64,000 nucleotides of DNA from an uncultured cyanobacterium (GTDB lineage: Bacteria > Cyanobacteriota > Cyanobacteriia > Cyanobacteriales > Microcystaceae), in assembly GCA_963807635.1 (NCBI GenBank), contig CAWEDJ010000105.1, forward strand, positions 1 through 64,000, read 5' to 3'. Shown here one piece after another: positions 13,286 to 63,368 of the stretch. The notes below the pieces were generated by a model, which worked only from the letters and a program-made list of their open reading frames with translations, was not told the DNA's origin and made no database searches. Numbering within the stretch: the stretch's first letter is position 1; the number at the start of each line of letters is the position of its first letter. The position numbers and the translations under genes are program-made.

Positions 13286-14466
13286 TTGATTATTAAAGCG
13301 TCCGTACTACTGCGTTATTTAATTCCTTTTTATGATCCAGATATCAAGAACTGGTCGGGAGAAGCCCGCTTAATGCGTTGGCTGACGTTTGCATGGTTGT
13401 TGATTGGACTCATTGTTCTATATTCTGCTTCTTTTCCAGAGGGAGAGGCTAATTATGGCGATGGCTTTTATATCATTAAACGTCAAGTGCTTTTTGTTTG
13501 GTTAGGGATGATTTTCTTTAACTGGATTGTGCGATCGCCTGTTGACCAATATTCTCAAAATTTCCCCTTGGATGTTGTTTATCTTTCTGGGATTGATTTT
13601 TGCGACGTTGGTGGGATTTGGTACCAGCGTTAATGGGGCGACTCGCTGGATCGCGATCGGGCCTTTTTTCGTTGCAACCCTCGGAATTTATGAAGCCATT
13701 TTTGGTGATTCAAAGTGCCTGGATTTTTGGTAACTGGGAGCGATTGCCCTGGAGAGTCCGACTTACTTGGATCGGCATTTTTGGATTGGTCTTAGTCGGC
13801 ATTCTGGTGCAACCTAATTTGAGTACGACTGCCCTTTGTGGAATGACGATTTGGTTGATTGCCCTAGCATCTGGACTACCCTTTGGTTATTTGGGAACAA
13901 CGGCAGTACTGGGGGCAATGACGGCGGTTTTAAGTATTACTTTTAAGGAATATCAACGTAAACGGATTACCTCCTTCCTCGATCCCTGGGCAGACCCGAT
14001 GGGCAATGGTTACCAATTAGTCCAAAGTTTATACGCGATCGGCTCAGGAAGAGTGTGGGGAACGGGTTACGGTCTTTCCCAACAAAAATTATTTTATCTG
14101 CCCATTCAATACACTGACTTCATTTTTTCGGTTTTTGCTGAAGAATTTGGTATTATCGGCGGAATAGCTCTACTTTGTCTTTTGGGACTCTATTCCACCC
14201 TCGCTCTACGGATTGCAATGAATTGTCGTCATCGGGTGAAACGTTTAATCGCCCTGGGGGTGATGGTGGTAATGATCGGTCAATCCCTCTTAAATATTGG
14301 AGTCGCAACAGGAGCTTTACCAACAACGGGTTTACCCTTCCCGCTCTTTAGTTATGGCGGTAGCTCAGTGGTGTCCTGTTTAATTTTGTCCGCCTTAATT
14401 ATTCGGGTGGCCAGGGAAAGTAATGAAGCAGAGGTTGTTCCATTAAAACAAAGCCAGGCAACTTGA
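13286..14466 (+). CDS. ftsW: SEDS family cell division protein FtsW; two frameshifts
   Basis: NGATRW, QPSEF, GYQLVQS, TDFIFS, PLFSYGGSS across three overlapping ORFs. Confidence 0.85.
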
Positions 14467-18388: not shown

Positions 18389-18832
18389 ATGTTTGACAAG
18401 TTTTTCAAAAAACAGCCCGATCAATCCCAAAGTATGAGCGGCATTACGGTTAATGGCGGTGTGGTTCAACAGGGACAAGCAGGAGGAAATCTGCAACAAG
18501 TTCAATCGGGAAATCTGGATACAAAACAACAAATCACGAATATCGAAGTCGTTAAGCAATTGGAACAGTTGGAAAATTCTGTCAAAAGTGCGACCTTACC
18601 CCAAGCTCAAAAAGATGAAATTCTAGATTATTTGCGGCCTGCTAAACGTGAAGCGGCTAAGGATTCAGCCAATAAGGATTTGATCGGGCAAAATCTGAAG
18701 CAGGTTAATGAGACACTAAAAACAGTCAAAGAAACGACGGAAACGGGAAAAAGTCTCTGGAATACTGCCCAGGAAGTTTTTAAAACGGTTGCGCCCTGGT
18801 TGGGTGTTGCGGCACATTTTTGGGGACTGTAG
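18389..18832 (+). CDS. Small helical protein with N-terminal Q/G-rich amyloid-like motif
   Basis: QSQSMSGITVNGGVVQQGQAGGN followed by helical domain ending in amphipathic W-rich helix. Confidence 0.7.
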   Translation: MFDKFFKKQPDQSQSMSGITVNGGVVQQGQAGGNLQQVQSGNLDTKQQITNIEVVKQLEQLENSVKSATLPQAQKDEILDYLRPAKREAAKDSANKDLIGQNLKQVNETLKTVKETTETGKSLWNTAQEVFKTVAPWLGVAAHFWGL

Positions 18833-18932
18833 TGAAATAGTAGGGGATTGGTCTCCAGGTCTGATACTTAATGGATTTGGGGATTAAACCTCTATAAGTA
18901 TTAAATCGTTATTGATGAGACACTGAATTATT

Positions 18933-21062
18933 ATGGCTTCACAGGATCAAAATATTGATCATAGCGAAATTAAAAATAGTAGCGTTCAGCAGAGCCAGGC
19001 AGGAAGAGACGCGGTTAGTTTTAACAATAGCCATGATAATCGGGTCGTTATTGAAAATACGTTTTTGCGGTTGTTTGATCGCTCTGAATCGAATCAGGTG
19101 GATTGGGATTGGGCGAAATTATTATTAGAAAAAAAGCAATTACCTGAAATTCGTAAACGCTTGACGGATACTTTGGGCAGAGAGCGAATTTTAATGGATG
19201 TTTCGATTGCGGAACAGCAACAATGGGTGAATCGTTTACAAGCGGATCGTCAAATACAAGTTAATGGAAAAAATGGCGGTTTACTTGATCCGAATAAAAT
19301 GCTGATTGAGACTTTTGGACGAGATGATATTTCAGGAAAATTATTGATTTTAGGTGCGCCTGGTTCAGGTAAAACAACGGCGTTATTGAGTTTAGCGGAA
19401 CAGTTAGTCATCGGCGCAATAGAGAAAGCACAAACGGTGATTCCAGTTATTTTGGAGCTTCCGACTTGGCGCGAGGATAATCAAAGTATTGAGGCTTGGA
19501 TTATTGAGCAGTTGTATGATTTGCATGGAGGAAATCGTAAGCGAAAAATTTATGAGCAATGGCTAGAGCGACAGGTTTTATTACCGTTATTGGATGGGTT
19601 AGATGAGTTGGGTTTGGAACGACAGAAAAAGTGTACAGAGAAGCTTAATGAATTTGCGCGAACCTATCCGCAATTAGTAGTTTGTTGTCGGGTTAAGGAA
19701 TTTGAAACGGCGAATATTAAGTTGAGTAATTTGAATGGGGCGATCTGTCTTCAGAAATTATCAGATGGACAAATTGAGGCTTATTTTCAGAGTATTAATC
19801 GGGCTGATTTATGGTCAGAAATGAAAACTAATTCGGTATTACAAGGATTATTGCAAGCAACGGTAGAAGGTGAGCCTGGTTTGTTGCGAGTGCCTTTATT
19901 TATTAAGCTATTGGCTAATGTTTATGATCCCCAAGAGCCAATTAAGAGTAAGGCTGATTTGTTAGAAAAATATATTGAACGTCAATTATTTTTTGCTCAA
20001 CGGGAACGCGATCACAGAAAAGGTTTACAAAATCATCCTTGGGCTTATAAAACTGTAGAAAAAGAACCAAGATTAGATGAAACGATTAATAGTTTAAGTT
20101 GGGTTGCTAGACAATTACAGACAAATAATAAAGTTGATTTTTTAATTGAAGGAATACAACCTCAATCAATAGAAAAGTTTTTTATGAGTCGCTATAAATT
20201 TGTTCTTAAGTGTTTTTTATTTTTTACCCTCATGATTATGTGTCTCTTTATGTTAAATGATTTAGTGCTAAAAACAGATTTTCATAATTTAAAAGATTTA
20301 TTTTTTTTCATATTTTCTTTCTTTTCTGTGTGCTTTATGTTTACATATGCCTTTGAGGAAAAATTTGGTCATGATAAAATCTATACACAAGAAGTGATTT
20401 TTATTATATTCTCGAAAATAAGAAGAAAAGTTTTCTGGAAAGCATACATTTCTGAATGTAGTAGAAGAGTTTTGTTTTGGATTCAACCGCCATTTACAAA
20501 ATTCAAAATATTCTTTCTTTCACTAATTATAGGAATGACACTTGCCAGTTCCATTCGTGATAATAATATTAATGTTCTTAATGGGCTTATCTTTATTTCT
20601 TCACTTTATTTTTTAATGTGCGCTTATGCACTATTTGATGTATTGAGAGATCTACAGATTTTAGATGATATGAAAATAAGAGATTATCCAAATCAAGGTA
20701 TATGGTGGTCATTAGCAAGTTTTCTTATAATATTTGTTTTGATTACATTCCTTGATTTAATAAGCGAGCAAATTGGGATAAATATGAGCCTTTTTTCATC
20801 AACATGGGCTTTATTCTTTTTGGGGTGTGGTGGATTGATTTGTGTTAAACACTTTTCTCTACGTTTTGTCCTCTGGCAAAGCGGCACAATTCCCTGGAAC
20901 TTTGCCCGTTTCCTCAACTACTGCGTTGAACGGCGTTTATTGCTTAGAGTTGGGGGTCGTTACCGTTTTCTGCACCGTGAACTCCTCGATCACTTCGCCC
21001 AATTACCACCTGGAACACAGATTAAAGAGATTACGCTGATTTCACAGATTTTTAGCTCATAA
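18933..21062 (+). CDS. NACHT NTPase with C-terminal transmembrane region
   Basis: GAPGSGKTT, LLDGLDE, VVCCR, PLF, TM block, PWNFARFL..RVGGRYRFLH. Confidence 0.9.
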   Translation: MASQDQNIDHSEIKNSSVQQSQAGRDAVSFNNSHDNRVVIENTFLRLFDRSESNQVDWDWAKLLLEKKQLPEIRKRLTDTLGRERILMDVSIAEQQQWVNRLQADRQIQVNGKNGGLLDPNKMLIETFGRDDISGKLLILGAPGSGKTTALLSLAEQLVIGAIEKAQTVIPVILELPTWREDNQSIEAWIIEQLYDLHGGNRKRKIYEQWLERQVLLPLLDGLDELGLERQKKCTEKLNEFARTYPQLVVCCRVKEFETANIKLSNLNGAICLQKLSDGQIEAYFQSINRADLWSEMKTNSVLQGLLQATVEGEPGLLRVPLFIKLLANVYDPQEPIKSKADLLEKYIERQLFFAQRERDHRKGLQNHPWAYKTVEKEPRLDETINSLSWVARQLQTNNKVDFLIEGIQPQSIEKFFMSRYKFVLKCFLFFTLMIMCLFMLNDLVLKTDFHNLKDLFFFIFSFFSVCFMFTYAFEEKFGHDKIYTQEVIFIIFSKIRRKVFWKAYISECSRRVLFWIQPPFTKFKIFFLSLIIGMTLASSIRDNNINVLNGLIFISSLYFLMCAYALFDVLRDLQILDDMKIRDYPNQGIWWSLASFLIIFVLITFLDLISEQIGINMSLFSSTWALFFLGCGGLICVKHFSLRFVLWQSGTIPWNFARFLNYCVERRLLLRVGGRYRFLHRELLDHFAQLPPGTQIKEITLISQIFSS

Positions 21063-21135: not shown

Positions 21136-22047
21136 GGGCGTGTCATCAATTAGGGGGGTTGACATTAGTGGCAAATAATGCGCAGAGTATGAAATGACAC
21201 AATATACGTTGAAGAGAGGTGTGAATATGACGAGGCGTTATGCGTTGCGGGATGACCAATGGGAAAGAATCAAAGAGCTATTACCTGGAAAAGAGGGAGA
21301 TGTGGGAGTAACAGCCAAAGATAATCGTTTGTTTGTTGAAGCCGTATTATATCGATATAGAGCGGGCATTCCTTGGAGAGACTTACCCGAAAGGTTTGGA
21401 GATTTTCGAGTGATTCACACGCGTTTTACGCGATGGACGAAATCAGGGGTGTGGGAAAAGGTATTCAAGCACTTAGCGCAGGACGCTGATAATGAATACG
21501 CAATGATAGATGCAACGATTGTGAGAGCGCATCAACACAGTGCAGGAGCAAAAAACAGTAGCGCAGAGGAAGAAGATATAGGAAGGAGTACAGGAGGATT
21601 AAGTACGAAAATCCATGCCGTAGTAGACGCATTAGGGAATCCAGTCTCTTTTTTCCTAACGCCAGGTCAAGCGTGTGATTTAGACGGAGCCGATGTGCTA
21701 TTGCCTGATGTAGAAGCAGAAGCGGTGCTAGGGGACAAAGCCTATGACGCAGACGATAGAGTCATTAAGGTTCTAGAAAAAAGAGGGATAGTGCCTGTGA
21801 TACCCTCGAAAAGTAATCGAAAAGAACCTCGCCCTTATGATACATTTTTGTATAAAGCGCGTCATTTAGTCGAAAACTTCTTTGCGAAACTCAAACAATA
21901 TCGTGCGCTTGCGACTCGTTACGAGAAGCGCTCAGCCAATTTTCTAGGCGGCATCTATCTGGCCGCATCAGTTATATGGTTAGCGTAGCCCAGTTTGAAC
22001 AGCATAATTATTCACTAATGTCAAGTGTGTTAATTGATGACACGCTC
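21136..22047 (+). mobile_element. IS5-family insertion sequence
   Basis: 17-bp TIRs GGGCGTGTCATCAATTA / TAATTGATGACACGCTC, flanked by TA; inner IR TTGACATTAGTG/CACTAATGTCAA. Confidence 0.92.
21194..21988 (+). CDS. IS5-family transposase
   Basis: WRDLP, IDAT, DKAYD, YKARHLVENFF DDE motifs; single frame; start may be ATG at 21227. Confidence 0.93.
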   Translation: MTQYTLKRGVNMTRRYALRDDQWERIKELLPGKEGDVGVTAKDNRLFVEAVLYRYRAGIPWRDLPERFGDFRVIHTRFTRWTKSGVWEKVFKHLAQDADNEYAMIDATIVRAHQHSAGAKNSSAEEEDIGRSTGGLSTKIHAVVDALGNPVSFFLTPGQACDLDGADVLLPDVEAEAVLGDKAYDADDRVIKVLEKRGIVPVIPSKSNRKEPRPYDTFLYKARHLVENFFAKLKQYRALATRYEKRSANFLGGIYLAASVIWLA

Positions 22048-22390
22048 TAATGCTTGATCCACTTTATTTTGCTTCATGACAACAAAAGAAAAACAATCTA
22101 CTAATCCCCACGATTTGTCTTGATACTGCTTATACAAAAGCAATGATTCATCAAATAACTCAGGCGTTAAACGAATAACGTCAATTTCATCAGAGGCTAA
22201 AAACCTTTCAATTAGCTCAACTGCCTCATTTCTATAATTGGCTGATAATTTGTTTCCAGATTCCAGAAAAATTGCATCAGTTGTAATCAAAGGGAAATTT
22301 TCGTATTGTTTAGCTAAACTTAAAGCTATTTGATGATATTGATCTCGTTTATTGATCAGAGCAACAATAAATAATGTATCTACAAAAATT

Positions 22391-22606
22391 TTAATCCTCA
22401 CCGACACCTCTCCCTAAACTAATAGCGACTTGAACAGAGAAATCTTCAGGAGCATCAATCGAAATTTCCTGTAATCGAGACATCAAACTCTGTTTTTTAA
22501 CTTTATTTTCTGAACTATTTAATTGTTCAATCATGCCATAGACTTGTTTAAGCTGTTCTTCACTTAAATCTTCTATTTTTTCTTGAATCATTTGTTTTGT
22601 AATCAT
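22391..22606 (-). CDS. Putative antitoxin of the VapC pair
   Basis: 71 aa, overlaps the PIN gene start; IDAPEDFS C-terminus. Confidence 0.65.
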   Translation of the reverse strand: MITKQMIQEKIEDLSEEQLKQVYGMIEQLNSSENKVKKQSLMSRLQEISIDAPEDFSVQVAISLGRGVGED

Positions 22607-26447: not shown

Positions 26448-27740
26448 ATGAAATTTGAAATTTTGTGTATTGATCAGCAAGGAAAAGTTGACTTTAGTCA
26501 TGAACAAAGATTTGCTAATTCTATTTCATCTAATGAAAAGCTTTGTAATTCTGTCTTAATAAAGATTAATAAAGATTTAGATAGTGATTCTAATAACTGT
26601 TATGAAGATGAGGAAAAAAGCCTAAGATGGTTTTTTCAATTATTAGATACAAGTAAGGTTGTTGGAGACCTTTTTACTTCTGCTTTTATCATAATTGTTG
26701 AAGGAGAAGAAAAAATAATAGGAGAGCTAAGAGAAGACCTTTTAAAATACTTAAGAAAATTAGGCTTTAATCATTTAAGAATTTTAACAGATGAGTTTTC
26801 TCAAAATATTTCTAGACAAATTTATCCTTTACTAAACGAGCTAGAAAACTTATTGCGACGTTATATTGTAAGGTTTTTCCTGACAAAGATTGGCTTAAAT
26901 TGGTTTGATATAATAGCATCTCAAAAATCGCAAGACAAGCGAAAGGTAAGGGTTAGAAATGAAAAACTCTTTAATCAATTAATCGATACAGATGTTGAAT
27001 TAGTTGATTTTGATGAACTGGGAGAAATTATTTATCAACAACGCACTGCTTTCAGCAAGACAGAAGAGATTATTAGAAATATAGAAAATGCCAGTTGCTT
27101 GGATGAATTAAAGAATTCAATACAGGGTAACTATGCAAAATATTTTAAAAAATACTTTGAAAGACAACAATTTGAAAGTAAATGGAAAAGATGCTATGAA
27201 ATACGAAATAAAGTTGCTCACAATTATCTTTTTACAAAAGAAGACCTTGACGATTCTCTTAATTTGATTGAGGAGTTAAAAAAAATTATTAATGATGCTG
27301 ACTCAGAAATAGATAAAGCGATATTCAGTATTTCAGAAAAGGAAGCATTAATTGCAAAATCAATGCCTTCAGATCGTATTGATAGCGAAATGACTGATCG
27401 TCCTACATATCAATATAATGGACAATCTAATTACAATACAACTCTAACTAATAATAGCCAAGAATTTAAAAAAGCAGTATCAGAAGAAGAGTTTCTTGAA
27501 GAGTTACAAGAATCTGAAAAGACTATAGATTTTGGAAAGGATACTTTTATTGGGTTGAGATATTTCGTAACCGATATTCTAGCTAAAAAAGGCTATGAAG
27601 TTCATACTTCTTATGCAATAGCGAATATCTTAGCGGACAAATATAAGGTTGAAATTTATGATGTTGATAATCCTAATCCTAATGCCTCATTCCCAACAAA
27701 AGCCATTAAATCAATTTGTTCTGAACCACAACAATTTTGA
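26448..27740 (+). CDS. HEPN-domain protein (Swt1-like), putative RNase/defence gene
   Basis: ENLLRRYI, DFDEL and RNKVAH (RxxxxH) motifs; AT-rich. Confidence 0.65.
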   Translation: MKFEILCIDQQGKVDFSHEQRFANSISSNEKLCNSVLIKINKDLDSDSNNCYEDEEKSLRWFFQLLDTSKVVGDLFTSAFIIIVEGEEKIIGELREDLLKYLRKLGFNHLRILTDEFSQNISRQIYPLLNELENLLRRYIVRFFLTKIGLNWFDIIASQKSQDKRKVRVRNEKLFNQLIDTDVELVDFDELGEIIYQQRTAFSKTEEIIRNIENASCLDELKNSIQGNYAKYFKKYFERQQFESKWKRCYEIRNKVAHNYLFTKEDLDDSLNLIEELKKIINDADSEIDKAIFSISEKEALIAKSMPSDRIDSEMTDRPTYQYNGQSNYNTTLTNNSQEFKKAVSEEEFLEELQESEKTIDFGKDTFIGLRYFVTDILAKKGYEVHTSYAIANILADKYKVEIYDVDNPNPNASFPTKAIKSICSEPQQF

Positions 27741-27917: not shown

Positions 27918-30799
27918 TTAAAGCGATCGCGTCTTAAATATGACCAATTTGCGTAACTCCTCAGCCCCTAATAAGATGGGAGGACATAAAAATAAGAGAG
28001 CGATTTGCCAACTCATTAAAGCCGCAGTCCCAAAGATGGTTTGTAAAGGAGAAAAATAAATCAGGGATAAAATCAAAATCCATTCGGTCGCAATGCCTAT
28101 CCAAATTAGACGATTGCGAAACCAACCCAACTTAAACGCAGAAGTTTGTTCCGAACGACAGGCGAAAACATTTCCATCTTGACAGGCAACGATCACGGCC
28201 AGGGTCATGGTCGTCGCTTGGGCATAGATAGCCATGATCGCTAAATTAGCGGTTCGGCTCAAAATTTCAGGCGTAATCATCTGTAAATCGGATAAACTAT
28301 AACCATAGCTCCACCAAACAATAAAAAAGCCCGCCATTCCCAAGGTTGCTTCGATTAAGCCTAAAAAACAGTAGGCTCGCAATAAAAGAGATTTATCTAA
28401 TAAGGCTTGATGCTTCGGGCGGGGAGGTTGTTGCATGGTTCCTGATTCCGCTGGCTCTACTCCCAGGGCTAGGGCGGGAATCATATCGGTTCCTAAGTCA
28501 ATGGCGAGAATTTGCATGATGACCAAAGCAGGGGGGATTTTTAACGCAACCATCAATAAAAAAGGCACTAATTCTGCCACATTGGAAGCCAAAATATAGG
28601 TCATAAATTTGCGAATATTTTGGTAAACAGTGCGTCCTTCTTCAATTGCATTAACAATAGTGGCAAAATTATCATCCGTCAAGACAATATCCGCCGCTTC
28701 CCGTGCCACATCGGTTCCATTTAACCCCATTGCAATCCCAATATTCCCTGCTCGCAAGGCGGGTGCATCATTCACCCCATCCCCTGTGACGGCAACGATT
28801 TCCCCCAAATCCTGATAGGCATGGACTAAGCGCAATTTTTGTTCGGGAGCCATCCGTGCAAAGACCAGACCAGACCGATATTTTAAAATTTGTCGCAGTT
28901 GGGCATCGGATAAATGACCCAGCCCATCCCCTGTGACGACTCGGACTTTATCTTTGACCAGACCAATGCGACGGGCGATCGCTTCGGCGGTTAATCCGTA
29001 ATCTCCTGTGACCATCGTGATCGTGATTCCTGCGGCTTGGCAACGGGCGATCGCGTCAGGAACTTCGGGACGGGGCGGATCAAACATGGCGACGAGACCA
29101 ATGAAAACGAGATTTTGCTCTAACTCCTGGGGCTTTTGTTCCAATAACTCGCCATTTCCCTGACGAATGGCTAATCCTAACACTCGAAAACCTTCCTGAG
29201 CTAGACGATCATTGGCCGCGATAATGGCCTGGCGATCGCTGGCGGTTAACTCGATCATTTGTCCCAGGCGTAAAATTCTCTGACAACGGCGTGAAACTTC
29301 TAAGGGTGCGCCTTTGGTAAAACTGAGATAGGAAGAATTAGGCAGAATGGGGGCAAACTCCTCGGAATGTTGCCAATCTAAAACCACCGTCATCATCCGT
29401 CGCCGCGAATCAAAGGGAACTTCCCGTTGACGGGCATAGTTTTTTTGCAGATCTTCTAAATTGAGATGGGCTTTTAATGCCGCTACTAATAAAGCCGCTT
29501 CGGTGGGATCGCCCATTTCTTGCCAACGACTCGATCCCAAGGGATGGACTAAATGGGCATTGGAACAAAGGGCTGCACCGATGAGGAGTAACTGGAGTTG
29601 CTGTCGGGCTTCGGTTTGGTCGGGCATAGCGATCGCCCCAGTGGTCGGATCATAGCCTTCTCCTGTCACTGCTACGGTTTGTCCATTGTTTGTACTCGGA
29701 ATCCACAGCGATCGCACGGTCATCTCATTTTTGGTCAGCGTTCCCGTTTTATCCGTGCAAATAATGGTGGTCGCACTCAGGGTTTCTACTGCCGAAAGAC
29801 GACGAACTAAAGCATTCCGTTTAGCCATTCGTTGTACCCCCATTGCGAGGGAAAGAGTGACAGTGGGCAATAATCCTTCAGGAACTGGGCCACAATAATG
29901 CCGATCGCAAAAATAAAACTCTCTTTCAATTCCATGCGACTCAAAAAAGAAGTCAACAGAAAAACCAATGTCCCCATACCCAAGGCAATCATGGTGATCA
30001 GGCGGACGATTTGGCTAATTTGCACTTCTAAGGTGCTGGGTTCTCGGATGACCTTGGTGGTGAGATGAGCGACGTGGCCAAATTCCGTCTGCGCTCCCGT
30101 TGCATAGACCACACCAACTCCTCTGCCTGCGGAAATTGTGGAACCTGCTAGGACTAAATTGCGAACTTCTTCCGCTTTAACAGGATCTTGTAAGGAACTT
30201 TCTCCTGCATGAACCAATACATTCCCCCCCCGCACAGGAACCACTTCTCGAATTTGGGCAGGTTCAGGAGAACGGGCAACGGGCAAAGATTCCCCCGTCA
30301 TCACCGATACATCCACATACAAACTCTCTGCCGACACTAATCGCAAATCCGCCGAAATGCGATCGCCTTCTTCCAGTTGCACCAGATCGCCCCGCACCAA
30401 TTCCCGCGCCAGGATCGTTTTTAATTGCCCTTCTCGATAGACTTTGACTTGAACGGGTAAAACTTTTTTCAGGGCATCTAGGGCTTTTTCGGCTCGAAAT
30501 TCCTGACTAAAACTAAATAGGGCATTAATCCAAATCACTGCCCAAATGGCCCAACCGAGGGCGGCAGTATGGGAAATAAAGGCTAAAATCCCTGCAACCC
30601 AGAGCAATAGGGCCATGAAGTGGGTTAACTGATCAGCAAATCGCAACCAGAGGGGACGACGAATCGGTTCGGGCAGTTCATTGGGGCCATAGTGTTCTAA
30701 TCTCAGGGCGGCTTCTTCTTCGGATAAACCCTGGGCGGAGGTTTCCAGGCGAGCATAAACCGCATCGGTGGCGATCGACCAGACCGTTGTGTTATTCAT
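27918..30799 (-). CDS. Cation-transporting P-type ATPase (type II); frameshift near 29890
   Basis: TGES, DKTGTLT, KGAP, TGD, GDGVND motifs across two ORFs. Confidence 0.92.
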
Positions 30800-31902: not shown

Positions 31903-32694
31903 TTATTTTTCTTCCATATTAAGCTCTTGACAGGTTTTTTGCCATCGATTAGTAAGATTTTGATTTAATTGTTTAAAATCCTTACTTGAGAGTAATATAC
32001 CTGCTGCTGATTTAACAGCTTCGTAGGTTGTACAAGCATTAAGAATAGTTGCAATAGCAGTAGAAGAATTTTGTCCTATTTTATGTAGAAAATGATAATA
32101 AAGTTCATCATAAATTTGTTGACAACGAACTCGAAGAATTTCAAGTTTTACCCATCCAAAAACAATTTCACTAGAAAAAACGAATTGTGTAATCCATGTA
32201 AGTAGCTCAAGATTATTGTGACGAAAAGTAAAAGCAAGAAGCCAAAGTATTACATACATAAGAACAATGACCCGTTTTCGCCCTAACATTGTTAAGGCAA
32301 TTTCTTTGCTAAAGAAAGCATTTTCCATTGTATTAGCCCCAAGACGCTGTACTGATGGAGAAAAAGAATTATTATAGTAGAGCGATGTATGCTCTTCAGA
32401 AAGAGGAACTCCAAATGAATCAGAAAAAAACTGCTTTCTCCTTACCGACTCCGCTCTTGGTAAAAAGTATAAACTCAATAACTGAGAAAAAGTAAAGTAG
32501 ATAAAAACAAAAACAACAAAAAAAATCTGAAGAATGTCTGCTCCTATTTTTCCAACGATTGAAGTTGAGTATGGAATTGCAAACGATAAAGCAGTATTAA
32601 TCCAAAAAAGTGAGGTGCTAAGCATCTCAAGTTTCTCAACGGAAGTATAATATTTAGAAACTTCATCAATTCTCTGTATATTTAGAGCCTTCAT
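31903..32694 (-). CDS. Multi-TM CBASS effector (4TM-like)
   Basis: Two pairs of hydrophobic helices; 4-bp overlap with the CD-NTase stop. Confidence 0.7.
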   Translation of the reverse strand: MKALNIQRIDEVSKYYTSVEKLEMLSTSLFWINTALSFAIPYSTSIVGKIGADILQIFFVVFVFIYFTFSQLLSLYFLPRAESVRRKQFFSDSFGVPLSEEHTSLYYNNSFSPSVQRLGANTMENAFFSKEIALTMLGRKRVIVLMYVILWLLAFTFRHNNLELLTWITQFVFSSEIVFGWVKLEILRVRCQQIYDELYYHFLHKIGQNSSTAIATILNACTTYEAVKSAAGILLSSKDFKQLNQNLTNRWQKTCQELNMEEK

Positions 32695-33476
32695 AATGGT
32701 GATATGATTTTTTTAATTTCTGACTCAGCAGAATAAGGCATTTGCTGGTTTTCGTAATCCTTTGCATTTTTGGCATACTGTTTAGCACGCTCAACCTTAT
32801 CCTTAATATATTGAGCCGTATCGTAGGTACAACTAAATTTCGACCAACATTCATAAAAATAGTCTTTTAAAAGTGAACATCCAAAAAATGATTGATTCAC
32901 AATATATTGTTCTATTGAGAATGACGGAAATGGTTGATTATTGATTGCATTCCAGTATTTAATCAATCTAACTAATGGTTTGATTTGATAATTATGATTT
33001 TTGTTTTTCTCTTGAATTAAACTATTAGTTTCTAACGGGTCTGTCCTTATCCATTCGAGCCAATCTAAAGCTGGTGAAGGAATCTGAAAGCCATCTTGGT
33101 AAATTGTGGGGACAAGTTCAAAGTTGATGTGATTTAAAGAAAGAACAATCGTTGGATATGATTGATAAATTTCTGAAGTATAATATTTTTTCTCAGCAAA
33201 ACGTCTAAGTCGGTCAAGATAAGTCTGAGGCTTTTTCTGACCATCAGAAGTATTAAAAACAACCATATAATCTATGTCTGAATATTTGTCTGCCTTACGA
33301 GGAAGAATTGTGCCACGAGTGCTAGAGCCAAATTGAGATTTTCCTATTATGTCCGTATCGAAATATAAATCCAGTCTCGACGAAAGTGTACTGATTGAAG
33401 TTGAAATACTAGACTTTTCTGCATCAGATAAGACAAGATCACTTGCCATGCTTGTTAAATAAGAGTTGACTGACAT
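32691..33476 (-). CDS. SMODS/CD-NTase cyclic oligonucleotide synthase
   Basis: FGSSTRGT..SDIDYMVVF, FELVP, TDP, VRLIKYWN, SFSIE; ATG at 33476 preferred. Confidence 0.85.
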   Translation of the reverse strand: MSVNSYLTSMASDLVLSDAEKSSISTSISTLSSRLDLYFDTDIIGKSQFGSSTRGTILPRKADKYSDIDYMVVFNTSDGQKKPQTYLDRLRRFAEKKYYTSEIYQSYPTIVLSLNHINFELVPTIYQDGFQIPSPALDWLEWIRTDPLETNSLIQEKNKNHNYQIKPLVRLIKYWNAINNQPFPSFSIEQYIVNQSFFGCSLLKDYFYECWSKFSCTYDTAQYIKDKVERAKQYAKNAKDYENQQMPYSAESEIKKIISPL

Positions 33477-33707
33477 AAGTTTAGAAATCTGAGACCTTTT
33501 AAGATAAACAATGTAAATACTACTAGTCTTTTCGTCAGACATAACCTTTTTCAAAGACTATTTTTAGTGTAGCTCATTCGTTAGAGTTGATCGCCGTTTC
33601 ATCCCTCTCGATCGCAAAGCCAGACTTTTATTAATGATTAGAAATTATTATGGTGAATCCGACAAATGGTATTGTCAAGACGATTTAGTTTAATTTTCTT
33701 ATTGTTG

Positions 33708-44050: not shown

Positions 44051-45441
44051 ATGGTCAATCTAACCCCGAATCCCAGCTACAGTGTTAATCTCCGCATTGA
44101 ATTACCCAATCGCTCAGGGACACTTGCCAATGTTACCAACGCGATCGCCTCTGAGGGAGGGAGTTTCGGACAAATTTCTCTCATCGAAAGTACGCTTAAA
44201 ATTACCCAACGAGAAATCACCGTTAATGCCTCTAGCGCAGAACACGCCGAAAGAATTGTCGATGCGGTCAAAGCCTTAGAAGACGTTAAATTAATCAGTG
44301 TTTCTGACCGTACCTTTGATTTGCACAAAAATGGGAAAATTACCGTCGAAAGTCGGATTCCCATCACCTCTCAAGCGGATTTGGCAATGGCCTATCCCCA
44401 GGGGTCGGTCGAATTTGTCGCGCGATCGCCGATGATCCCGATCTGGTTTATTCCCTCACCATTAAAGGAAATACGGTGGCGGTTGTGACCGATGGCAGTG
44501 CCGTTTTAGGATTAGGGAATTTGGGGCAAGAGGCCGCTTTGCCCGTGATGGAAGGAAAAGCCATGCTATTTAAGCAATTTGCAGGAATTGATGCCTTTCC
44601 TATTTGTTTAGACACCCAGGACACGGAAGAAATCATCAAAGCGGTGAAACAAATCGCACCCGTTTTTGGTGGCGTTAACCTGGAAGATATTGCGGCTCCG
44701 CGTTGCTTTGAGATCGAAGCCCGTTTGCGCCAAGAATTAAAAATTCCCGTTTTCCATGATGATCAACACGGAACGGCGATCGTCACCTTAGCCGCTTTAA
44801 TTAATGCGCTGAAACTGGTGAATAAATCCTTTGATTCCGTCCGAATCGTGATTAATGGGGCAGGGGCGGCAGGATTAGCGATCGCCTCTTTATTGCAAAA
44901 AGCAGGAGCGGCGACCATCTGGGTTTGTGACTCTAAAGGGATTCTTTCTAAAAATCGGACTGATTTGAATTCTCAAAAATTAGCCTATGCCGTCAGTGCA
45001 ACAGGAACCTTAGCCGATGCGATGGAAGGAGCCGACATCTTTTTGGGAGTTAGTGCGCCTGGCGTTGTCTCACGAGAAATGGTGAAATCGATGGCAAAAA
45101 ATCCCATTGTCTTTGCGATGGCTAATCCGATTCCCGAAATTCAACCTGAACTGATCATTCATGATGTGGCAGTGATGGCAACGGGGCGCAGTGATTATCC
45201 TAATCAAATCAATAACGTTTTGGCGTTTCCTGGGGTCTTTCGTGGAGCCTTGGACTGTCGAGCCAGGACAATTACCGATAATATGTATTTAGAAGCGGCT
45301 AAAGCGATCGCCTCTCTGGTTTCGATTCATCAACTCGACAAGGAACATATTGTCCCCTCGGTCTTTGATCCCAGGGTATCCAGTGCGGTGGCGGGTGCCG
45401 TTCAACACGCGGCTCGTACCGAAGGCATCGCGGCCCAATAA
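44051..45441 (+). CDS. NAD(P)-dependent malic enzyme with N-terminal ACT domain; frameshift near 44395
   Basis: VTDGSAVLGLGN, NLEDI, HDDQHGTA, TGRSDYPNQINN. Confidence 0.92.
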
Positions 45442-60599: not shown

Positions 60600-62951
60600 C
60601 TAATCATTGTCCTCTAAGTTTTTCTGAATTTTTGCTAGGAGTTCTTCGCAGTCTTTAACTAAAGGAATACCAAGTTCTTGGGAGAGGGTGAGGGCGTTTT
60701 GGCAATGGGTGAGGGCGGGTTGGGGTTGATTGGTTTGATGGGCGATTTCCGCAAGAGCTTTTAAACTATGGGCGATTAAATATTTAAAGTTAATCTCTTG
60801 GGAAATAACTAAGGATTCTTGAATTTTGGCTTCTGCTTCGCTGTAATTTTCAAGTTCGATCAATATCTCCCCTATATTGTGTAGAGCAATTGCCTCCCCT
60901 CGCCGCAAGTTAATTTTTTTACTAATGTCAAGAGATTTCTGGTTAGAGTCGATCGCCTCTGTATATCGCTTCAAGGAATGATAACAACGTCCTAAAGCCC
61001 ATAGAGAATTTGCCTCCCCTTCCTGATGGCCGATTTTTTTACTAATGTTGAGAGATTGCTGGTTAGAGTTGATCGCCTCTGTATATCGCTTCAAGGAATG
61101 ATAACAAAGTGCTAAATGCAATAGAGCGAGTGCCTCCCCTTCCTGATCGCCGATTTTTTTACTAATGTTGAGAGATTGCTGGTTAGATTCGATCGCCTCT
61201 GTATATTGCCCTAAGAAATAATAATAAAGTCCTAAATTCCCTAGAGCAAATGCTACTCTTTTTAGATCGCCCATTTTTTCGCTGATTTCAAGAAATTCCT
61301 TGTACTTGGATCTCGCTTCTGTATACTGCCCTAAGAAAGAATAATAAAGTCCTAAATTCATTAGACAACCTGCTACCACTTCCTGATAGTCCATTTTTTT
61401 ACTAATGTCGAGAGATTGCTGGGTAGAGTAGATCGCGTCTTTATACTTCCCCAAAAGATTATAACAATTGCCTAAATTCACTAGACAACCTGCCACTCCT
61501 TTCTGATCGTCCATTTTTTCGCTAATGCCGAGAGATTCCTTGTACTTGGCGATCGCTTTTTCATACTCCCCCAAGGAACAATAACAATTGCCCAGACGGT
61601 TGAACGACTTCCTATGACAATCTTGTTCCCGTTGACTCCCTGCGATCACCTGCTCGTATAATTGCGCTCTCTGACGATAAAGCCCTTGTAATTCCAAAAA
61701 TTGATCAACCGATTTATTTTTTCCTTCTCCCCCTCGCTCCTCATTCAAAATATCAAAAGCTAACTGCCATTCTCCCAATTCCCCTGCATGGTAAAACCCC
61801 TCTAAATACACCGTCAAATCCGCCAACGATTCCCAGGGAGGCGCGGGTAAATGGGCCAAAAAATAAGCCAACGCGGACTGATGCGCCGATCGCAATAGCT
61901 CAGAATCCGTTTGCTGTTGCACCACCATCGAAATTAAAGGCAAAAACTGAAACCGTCGCCGTTTTCCCTCTTTGGGTTCGGGGGGAAACTCCTGCAACAA
62001 CGACAAACGGGCCAAATCCCGTAAATCTTTCTCTGTTACCCCAGCCGTTAACCCCTGAGCTAACCCCAGATCAAAAATCCCTCGCAATACCGATAACCGC
62101 TTTAAAATATCCCCTAACCGTGCCGATAATCGCGACAAACTGGCCGCTACCACTTCCCTGACACAGGTTTCCGTATCACGGTGATAACCCTCCACCGTAA
62201 ACAAATCTAAGCCCAAGTTTTCCGCCTCTGTCACACAAACCTCTTCCCCCAACTCCTCCCGCATCCAACTCGATACCAGTTGCATCAAGAGGGGATGCCG
62301 CCCCATCTGGTTCACAAATTGGGCTAATTCTTTCTTCGTTCCCGTTAAACCATAGTCTTCCGTCACCAAACGCATCGCATCGGCTTCTGCTAACCCCTTT
62401 AAGGGCAACCAATAACAACGCGATCGCAAATTGGGGGCCAACGTTGGCTGTTCCCGACTGGTGAGCAACAGCTTACTGTTACCCCCGTTCCCTAGCCATT
62501 GGCTCAAAAATTGACCATAAACCGACTTCCCTTCTGCTGGTATTACCGTTTCCATATTGTCCAACACCAACAAACAAGGCTCGGCGATTAACCCTGCGAT
62601 TATCTGCCCAATTAACGTCTCCTCGTCCCATTTTTCATCATAAGCTTGTCCTAACTGCTCCAATAACCATCGCCCAAATTGCGCCAAGGGGTAAGGCTGA
62701 ATAAAATTCACCCACAACACCCGCCAATCAGGGGTTAACTGCTCTTTGAACTTCACCGCTAAAGCCGATTTCCCATAGCCTCCTGCGGCGGTCATCCCGA
62801 TTAAGCGTACTTTGTCATTGCTTAGGGCGGTTTGTAGTTCATTTATTTCATCCTGTCGTCCCTGCCATTCATCTACAGGTGGAGGTGTGGTATTCAGGGT
62901 TGCTGATTGCGTTGGGGCTAACTTTGTCTGTTTTCCATCAGACGAATCCAG
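60600..62951 (-). CDS. NB-ARC/STAND NTPase with TPR repeats (bacterial NLR); start unresolved
   Basis: Open from 62951: EWQGRQDE, GGYGKS, LLVLDN, TSR, HPL, then 40-aa TPRs. Confidence 0.88.
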   Translation of the reverse strand: MDSSDGKQTKLAPTQSATLNTTPPPVDEWQGRQDEINELQTALSNDKVRLIGMTAAGGYGKSALAVKFKEQLTPDWRVLWVNFIQPYPLAQFGRWLLEQLGQAYDEKWDEETLIGQIIAGLIAEPCLLVLDNMETVIPAEGKSVYGQFLSQWLGNGGNSKLLLTSREQPTLAPNLRSRCYWLPLKGLAEADAMRLVTEDYGLTGTKKELAQFVNQMGRHPLLMQLVSSWMREELGEEVCVTEAENLGLDLFTVEGYHRDTETCVREVVAASLSRLSARLGDILKRLSVLRGIFDLGLAQGLTAGVTEKDLRDLARLSLLQEFPPEPKEGKRRRFQFLPLISMVVQQQTDSELLRSAHQSALAYFLAHLPAPPWESLADLTVYLEGFYHAGELGEWQLAFDILNEERGGEGKNKSVDQFLELQGLYRQRAQLYEQVIAGSQREQDCHRKSFNRLGNCYCSLGEYEKAIAKYKESLGISEKMDDQKGVAGCLVNLGNCYNLLGKYKDAIYSTQQSLDISKKMDYQEVVAGCLMNLGLYYSFLGQYTEARSKYKEFLEISEKMGDLKRVAFALGNLGLYYYFLGQYTEAIESNQQSLNISKKIGDQEGEALALLHLALCYHSLKRYTEAINSNQQSLNISKKIGHQEGEANSLWALGRCYHSLKRYTEAIDSNQKSLDISKKINLRRGEAIALHNIGEILIELENYSEAEAKIQESLVISQEINFKYLIAHSLKALAEIAHQTNQPQPALTHCQNALTLSQELGIPLVKDCEELLAKIQKNLEDND
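60890..61600 (-). repeat. 120-bp tandem TPR-coding repeats (about 6 units)
   Basis: Sequence lines 120 bp apart are near-identical. Confidence 0.9.
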
Positions 62952-63368
62952 TCAAAAAGTTACAGGCCCATTGAAAGTATTTCCCTGAACAACATTCTTG
63001 ATTTGCTCGGCTAACTTCTGAGAATTAATAACGGTTGTCTGTTGCGTCTGAGATTTAATTGAATTCACAAGGTCTTTTAGTAAAGGTTCCGTTTCTACCA
63101 TTACGACTAATTCCTGCATCCTTTGAGCTACTTCAGGATTAGCCTTTGCGGCTGCTTCCGTTTCTAATACCGCTTTCCCATAATTCAAGGGCTGTTCAGG
63201 AGCTTTTTCAATCGCTGTGACCGTATCGGGTGATTCGTTTCTTAAGGAATTCAAAAAATCACCTGTTTGTTGCCAAAGAGTTTCAGCTACTTTTTCACCC
63301 GTTTTTTCAAGGGCTTTAGTTGCTACTACTGAACCAATGGCGATCGCGGCGGTTGTGAAGGGTTCCAT
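62952..63368 (-). CDS. Bell-like helical effector with C-terminal amyloid-like motif
   Basis: N-terminal hydrophobic helix MEPFTTAAIAIGSVVATKALEK; ends IKNVVQGNTFNGPVTF; adjacent to NLR. Confidence 0.7.
   Translation of the reverse strand: MEPFTTAAIAIGSVVATKALEKTGEKVAETLWQQTGDFLNSLRNESPDTVTAIEKAPEQPLNYGKAVLETEAAAKANPEVAQRMQELVVMVETEPLLKDLVNSIKSQTQQTTVINSQKLAEQIKNVVQGNTFNGPVTF

Follow-up and report, generated by a model that had tools for sequence, protein, structure and literature searches.

The question raised by this locus is whether two neighbouring genes, one encoding a small helical protein and the other a NACHT protein with membrane segments, form an amyloid-type signalling pair in which the effector is built in reverse. 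Both proteins begin with a short and similar motif, here called a tag. The window, meaning the whole stretch of 64,000 nucleotides that was analysed, holds the two genes 100 bp apart, with the features collected in Table 1. The conserved, tag-matched two-gene system is real, and we assign a probability of about 60% to the reading that it is a templated amyloid-type immune relay coupling a NACHT-TM sensor to a new C-terminal effector.

Table 1. Features of the gene pair, in positions of the window.
Feature	Position	Strand	Description
Small gene	18389..18832	+	147 aa; N-terminal tag, then C-terminal four-helix bundle (predicted); putative effector
Effector-side tag, QSQSMSGITVNGGVVQQGQAGGN	18422..18490	+	small-protein aa 12-34
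Predicted four-helix bundle	18539..18823	+	small-protein aa 51-145
C-terminal helix end, moderately hydrophobic	18776..18829	+	aa 130-147; conserved W137, G139; candidate for membrane contact
NACHT protein, five predicted membrane segments	18933..21062	+	709 aa; putative sensor
Sensor-side tag, QDQNIDHSEIKNSSVQQSQAGRD	18942..19010	+	NACHT aa 4-26
NACHT Walker A (aa 141-148) to Walker B (aa 216-225)	19353..19607	+	
Variable membrane region	20199..20846	+	NACHT aa 423-638; putative sensing part

The ungapped 23-residue alignment of the two N-termini, on which the first-pass annotation had built its proposal of a shared motif, was reproduced with 8/23 identities, an ungapped BLOSUM62 score of 36, a local score of 37 and a z of 4.1 against shuffles. 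When N-terminus was compared with N-terminus across 1441 adjacent same-strand ORF pairs of the same genome, a local score of at least 37 was reached by 44, the best 25 of which are mostly tandem paralogues. Taken alone, the tag likeness in the window is modest, lying in the top 3% of neighbours and not exceptional. One RNA contig covers 18642-19118, which does not establish a single transcript for both genes, and promoter and terminator scans remained at chance level. Directly 3' of the NACHT gene, positions 21194-22606 hold an IS4/5-type transposase and a PIN toxin-antitoxin-like pair.

The linkage that the same proposal had presupposed was found in other genomes. Among 48 loci with close homologues, a tag-bearing NACHT gene stands directly downstream of the small gene in 39, or 40 if L042 is included, where the tag-bearing NACHT gene follows after one inserted gene; the set contains one pair of near copies (L024 and L045). 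The remaining loci comprise one in which the tag is present and the contig then ends (L013), one in which the small gene is frameshifted and the NACHT gene has no detected tag (L027), and six with nothing downstream, of which three lie where the contig stops within 600 bp, two are partial matches and one is intact (L035). A Pfam scan of 109 of the 126 flanking ORFs, together with five ORFs of the window, revealed neither a conserved third gene beside the pair nor a clear defence-island signal, the flanking genes being housekeeping genes, toxin-antitoxin parts, Uma2 nucleases and transposases. The distribution of the bundle family is patchy, with the broad profile matching 60 of the 401 genomes of the order; the window's genome has one copy of the tag-bundle module, and a search of a single genome from the same genus (99% complete) did not detect it. 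The wider family comprises 663 clusters at 50% identity with this broad profile, which also retrieved many fusions, whereas a narrow alignment retrieved no longer homologues, a false negative. Five weak phylum-wide matches in TPR proteins (L066-L070) were set aside as non-members.

Motif conservation and co-variation within pairs, which had been proposed as checks, were observed across the wider family. The fetched loci yielded 106 distinct full bundles, 83 of them with a qualifying downstream ORF (at least 140 aa, starting within 450 bp) and 23 without; a shared tag at z of at least 3 was present in 66 of these 83 pairs, the other 17 downstream ORFs being non-matching. Tags vary from locus to locus yet mostly agree inside a pair, and own partners scored 60.7 against 31.3 +/- 4.3 for permuted partners when one pair was taken per cluster (11 clusters at 50% identity). 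The permutation at 60% identity, with 21 clusters, gave a similar result. P lay at its floor of 0.002 in all 200 draws. The partners tagged in this manner include NACHT-TM, FGE-sulfatase and inactive STAND proteins and, as read by eye, TPR-like and membrane proteins. In the close family, trees of 37 pairs recovered a QQ group of 19 loci, the same with either protein (support 88/79 and 99/97), and at L038 and L044 the two tags are both shorter by four residues; these amount to only two independent tag co-changes, and L053, L016 and L022 deviate. Two further arrangements were observed: at L152, two tag-bundle modules stand in tandem (their ends lie near 2191 and 4988), both with a tag-bearing partner behind them, and at L054 (574-1470, minus strand) a NACHT protein has its tag doubled and another NACHT comes after it.

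The small protein matched no Pfam or NCBIfam family above cut-off. Within its tag, Q12, S13, Q14, Q27 and A31 are invariant across 44 homologues, and the tags in general are rich in Q, S, G, N, I and V and poor in K, P and L, a composition resembling that of BASS motifs. An AlphaFold model built on 44 sequences left residues 1-46 at pLDDT below 50, with the tag unmodelled as a monomer, and predicted four helices at aa 51-67, 72-89, 96-116 and 118-145. A second model, of a relative with another tag class, again left the tag unmodelled and again contained the bundle; neither tag class was given any beta structure in these two monomer models. Foldseek and VIA searches with the bundle returned generic bundles only, with no HeLo, MLKL or Bell entry among the matches listed, and kinship with these is possible. 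The best fold match, a generic four-helix protein, reached Z 11.4, where the level named for bundles is about 13, and a HeLo profile was matched weakly by one of the 23 broad-alignment members (E 0.044). Two Atlas leads, DUF4404 (0.90, 23% of members) and TCAD2 (0.88), were dropped, as nothing further supported either; the string TCAD does not occur in the main texts of PMC7159879 and PMC8195603.

The inverted architecture postulated for the small protein was upheld: its N-terminus is polar and unmodelled, its hydrophobic helix comes last, and the hydrophobic end lies at most six residues from the C-terminus in 140 of 142 full-length matches. The C-terminal stretch singled out earlier as a possible membrane-active amphipathic helix falls within predicted helix 118-145 and is amphipathic (moment up to 0.49), but it is only moderately hydrophobic, the last 18 residues of the window's protein having a Kyte-Doolittle value of 1.07. 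Across modules, the best 17-residue window of the terminal helix has a median of 1.38 and reaches at least 1.0 in 75/83, as compared with 1.89 and 1.52 for the more hydrophobic N-terminal helices of two Bell-like proteins.

The identification of the adjacent protein as a membrane-bound NACHT protein was borne out by a PF05729 match of 29.5 bits (cut-off 26.7), by the Walker motifs, with DGLDE in Walker B fitting the D[GAS]hDE signature, and by five hydrophobic segments. These segments occupy the variable part of the protein, with a median identity among 27 NACHT partners of 24% in the membrane region, 64% in the core and 80% at aa 631-690. The GC content of the membrane region is 27%, against 38-44% on both sides, and in one contig of run X5 other letters take the place of this region, connecting 20149 with 20841. 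From this variability we infer that the membrane region is the sensing part of the protein.

A natural exchange of the small gene was observed at L079, one locus in a metagenome-assembled genome. In this close relative, whose NACHT protein is 78% identical, the small gene is truncated and a Bell-like gene with a C-terminal tag has been inserted. The NACHT tag there agrees with that of the inserted gene (z 8.9) but fails to match the small-gene remnant (z -0.4), which has kept its likeness to the NACHT tag of the window (z 3.4). The newcomer is termed Bell-like by its layout in comparison with the published description, no Pfam or NCBIfam model having matched it, and Atlas features group it with HetE-N clusters (0.95). 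The same Bell-like arrangement recurs in a more distant relative (L119, z 7.7). A survey of 80 NACHT relatives found the bundle upstream in 10, a second tag-first helical family in seven and neither in 63. Most of these 63 carry other N-terminal domains; across the 80 relatives, the N-terminal position is otherwise filled by membrane helices or by domains that we take to be EAD1, CHAT or kinase domains. Four of the 63 (L133, L137, L142 and L186) have tag-like NACHT ends with no partner seen. The second helical family, found upstream of NACHT-TM genes at L122, L123, L130, L141, L151, L166 and L178, has tags that match the NACHT protein strongly (z 10-18) in six cases, the gene at L151 being broken, and showed no detectable relationship to the bundle (3%).

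The two-gene pair described in the first-pass annotation is only part of the picture: the module belongs to a large family that also occurs fused behind CHAT, TIR or pentapeptide regions and with non-NACHT partners. In 57 longer homologues, tag and bundle are preceded by pentapeptide repeats in 19, CHAT in eight, TIR in four, AbiTii in two, TRADD-like and PMT in one each, and nothing in 22. Among the best 120 of 1088 matches to pentapeptide proteins, the slot after the tag is filled by the bundle family in 32 (some of them distant), the second helical family in 67, CHAT in 17 and others in four, and one tag type stands before both CHAT and the second helical family. In 20 of 31 fused forms, against 4% expected, an ATG in the same frame lies 30-85 codons before the bundle and is accompanied by a Shine-Dalgarno-like stretch of at least four bases. 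Most of these 20 are related pentapeptide genes and do not count as independent cases, and such a start is absent from four CHAT-like or TIR-like fusions. In the C-terminal part of pentapeptide-repeat genes, the internal ATG stands just before the tag at L056-L063, L072, L092, L093, L152 and L187. These internal starts suggest that the tag-bundle module may also be translated separately from pentapeptide-repeat genes. Elsewhere, the bundle ends an LRR-Roc-COR protein (L202, 384-3443, plus strand) and an AbiTii protein (L195, 608-1681, plus strand).

By analogy with HET-S/NWD2 and Bab/Agp, the relay would begin with the NACHT membrane region sensing a threat or change, upon which the NACHT protein would oligomerise. 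The N-terminal NACHT tags, brought together in this way, would serve as a template on which the small protein's own tag adopts a cross-beta stack; the bundle would then open and let its C-terminal helix enter and damage the membrane, with cell death and an antiviral role as the presumed outcome. The amyloid-signalling reading advanced at the outset passed its comparative predictions, including the exchange with a canonical Bell-like partner at L079; on the other side, AlphaFold leaves the tag unmodelled.

The alternatives differ in how much of this scheme they retain. The most sceptical takes the tag likeness as a functionless by-product of low complexity, short DNA duplication or 5'-end gene conversion, and the compositional bias of the tags and the top 3% rank of the window's pair would suit it; own partners nevertheless outscore non-partners of like composition, the tag is kept despite a distant, replaced NACHT core (L032, L033 and L039), and it switched along with the partner at L079. 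Gene conversion as the origin was rejected, as likeness at synonymous sites does not exceed what codon usage would give: identical tag residues share the same codon in 405/889 cases against 386 expected (z 1.4). With no excess of identical codons, the match is held at the protein level. The by-product explanation is thus largely refuted, and we give it a very small probability. Matching of this pair-specific kind is possible without amyloid, however, and the tags might pair through finite beta-strand or beta-roll contacts, yielding a stoichiometric complex like that of effector-associated adaptor domains and no self-propagating amyloid. One tag class weakly matches the beta-roll family PF21300 (6/23 members, best E 6e-4), and several partners, such as FGE-sulfatase and inactive STAND, are not obviously oligomerising NTPases; yet the tags equal BASS motifs, which formed fibrils when tested (10.1101/2020.01.06.895854; 10.1101/2024.11.07.622273), in length, composition and gene arrangement, the NACHT protein accepts a Bell-type C-terminal tag, and both AlphaFold models leave the monomeric tag without structure, which together make such finite contacts improbable in our estimation.

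A further possibility accepts that the tags couple proteins and casts the bundle as a regulator or adaptor with no killing of its own; it would keep the tag covered or soluble, tether the assembly to the membrane, or serve as an amplifier of the seed for CHAT or TIR proteins elsewhere. The fusions and the non-NACHT partners are the reason for considering it, since CHAT and TIR fusions already own an effector and the bundle may there regulate or anchor; CHAT, TIR, AbiTii or TRADD-like domains precede tag and bundle in 15 of the 57 longer homologues. The generic fold and moderately hydrophobic terminal helix point the same way, as does a comparison with a thin alignment of three Bell-like proteins, in which no profile likeness to the bundle was detectable (hhalign 0.1%). 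Set against these are the single module copy in the window's own genome with no conserved third gene beside the pair, the replacement of the small gene by a Bell-like gene at L079, and the occupation of the same slot by CHAT behind the same kind of tag; we consider the adaptor role unlikely.

Under the preferred reading of an amyloid-type relay, the bundle is likely an unnamed domain in amyloid-type sensor-effector coupling, with an effector built back to front relative to the described bacterial pairs. A broader proposal, which we advance tentatively and would not yet bet on, is that a large, undescribed inverted amyloid-signalling branch exists in cyanobacteria. Its tag-first effectors (the bundle, the second helical family and the CHAT protease) would use a free C-terminal end to kill or to signal, and would be interchangeable with Bell on one sensor. 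Many private tags would link them to sensors of the NACHT-TM, FGE-sulfatase, inactive STAND and TPR kinds, and internal starts in pentapeptide-repeat genes would be a further source of such effectors. If true, this branch of 663 clusters would provide a candidate death domain that has no name so far, a large natural collection of tag pairs on which the specificity of seeding could be studied, and a likely role for the pentapeptide and NACHT-TM genes that are so common in cyanobacteria. The swap at L079 offers a ready-made test of whether Bell and bundle are equivalent outputs.

Other features of the window were recorded alongside the pair. A Bell-like small gene with a C-terminal tag (62952-63368, minus strand) lies in the same frame as an NTPase-TPR ORF (60600-62795, minus strand), with one stop between them and no tag visible right after that stop; the layout would fit an all-in-one gene that was interrupted as well as a pair whose start is unusual. 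Two adjacent ORFs of 287 and 263 aa (31903-33554, minus strand) may encode a nucleotidyltransferase and a membrane effector of a CBASS-type system, and 26448-27740 (plus strand) encodes a Swt1-like HEPN protein (PF18731, E 1.4e-8). At 13286-14466, 27918-30799 and 44051-45441, several ordinary genes are apparently split into overlapping ORFs, which points to frameshifts or assembly errors in this contig.

Among candidate defence proteins, the closest counterpart of the small protein is PADLOC PDC-M14B. Residues 15-128 match positions 150-263 of the 267-position model (E 1.7e-7), and all 23 broad-alignment members match PADLOC model PDLC04449 (best E 1e-10); the model differs in having about 150 further N-terminal positions, the window's protein covering the C-terminal 114 of 267. 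The PADLOC models gave no PDC-M14 match for the NACHT protein or the upstream ORF, and M14 is not named in the main text of 10.1101/2024.01.29.577857. The sensor itself resembles the bacterial NACHT proteins with membrane segments described in 10.1101/2022.07.19.500537, which share the D[GAS]hDE Walker B, a C-terminal TM region proposed as sensor, a variable N-terminal effector slot and a frequent occurrence in cyanobacteria. In the window, this effector slot holds a 25-aa tag only, and the word amyloid is absent from the main text of that source.

The published placement of effector-side amyloid motifs, bacterial and fungal, is at C-termini (10.1101/2020.01.06.895854; 10.1101/2024.11.07.622273; PMC7889193), with RHIM motifs placed centrally and a search bias noted in PMC7889193. 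In the literature searched, which also included PMC12261475, PMC9815663, PMC13506858 and PMC10907252, no description of a tag-first helical effector in bacteria was found; most subscription papers, the BASS tables, the BASS11 domain associations and the PDC-M14 definition lie outside that scope and could bear on novelty. The fungal NWD2/HET-S pair (PMC7889193) likewise combines a NACHT sensor bearing an N-terminal motif with an adjacent helical effector gene, but in HET-S the prion domain, made up of two repeats, is C-terminal and the pore helix N-terminal, whereas the polarity is inverted in the window and the close family has a single tag. Bab/Agp (BASS11; 10.1101/2024.11.07.622273), which was shown to use amyloid signalling in defence against phage and whose sensor falls outside the classical NLRs, has in common the two genes, the small helical protein and the shared short motif. 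In that system, the Bab helix is N-terminal and its motif C-terminal, and Agp is a TPR-GreA/B-PIN protein.

The nearest relatives in organisation are the Bell/BASS1-10 pairs of cyanobacteria, as described in 10.1101/2020.01.06.895854. These consist of adjacent collinear genes, with a small helical protein upstream and a STAND NTPase whose N-terminal tag of about 25 aa is rich in Q, N, G, V and I, and BASS tags are used with CHAT and TIR too. The Bell protein, by contrast, carries its tag at the C-terminus and its hydrophobic helix at the N-terminus, both reversed in the window's small protein; the Bell/BASS sensors have TPR or WD40 repeats where ours has membrane segments, and other loci of the bundle family are paired with FGE-sulfatase, inactive STAND or TPR proteins. 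Judged from its gene and tag layout, the pair would work like a Bell/BASS pair and yet is apparently not a member of that group, having an N-terminal effector-side tag and no Bell domain.
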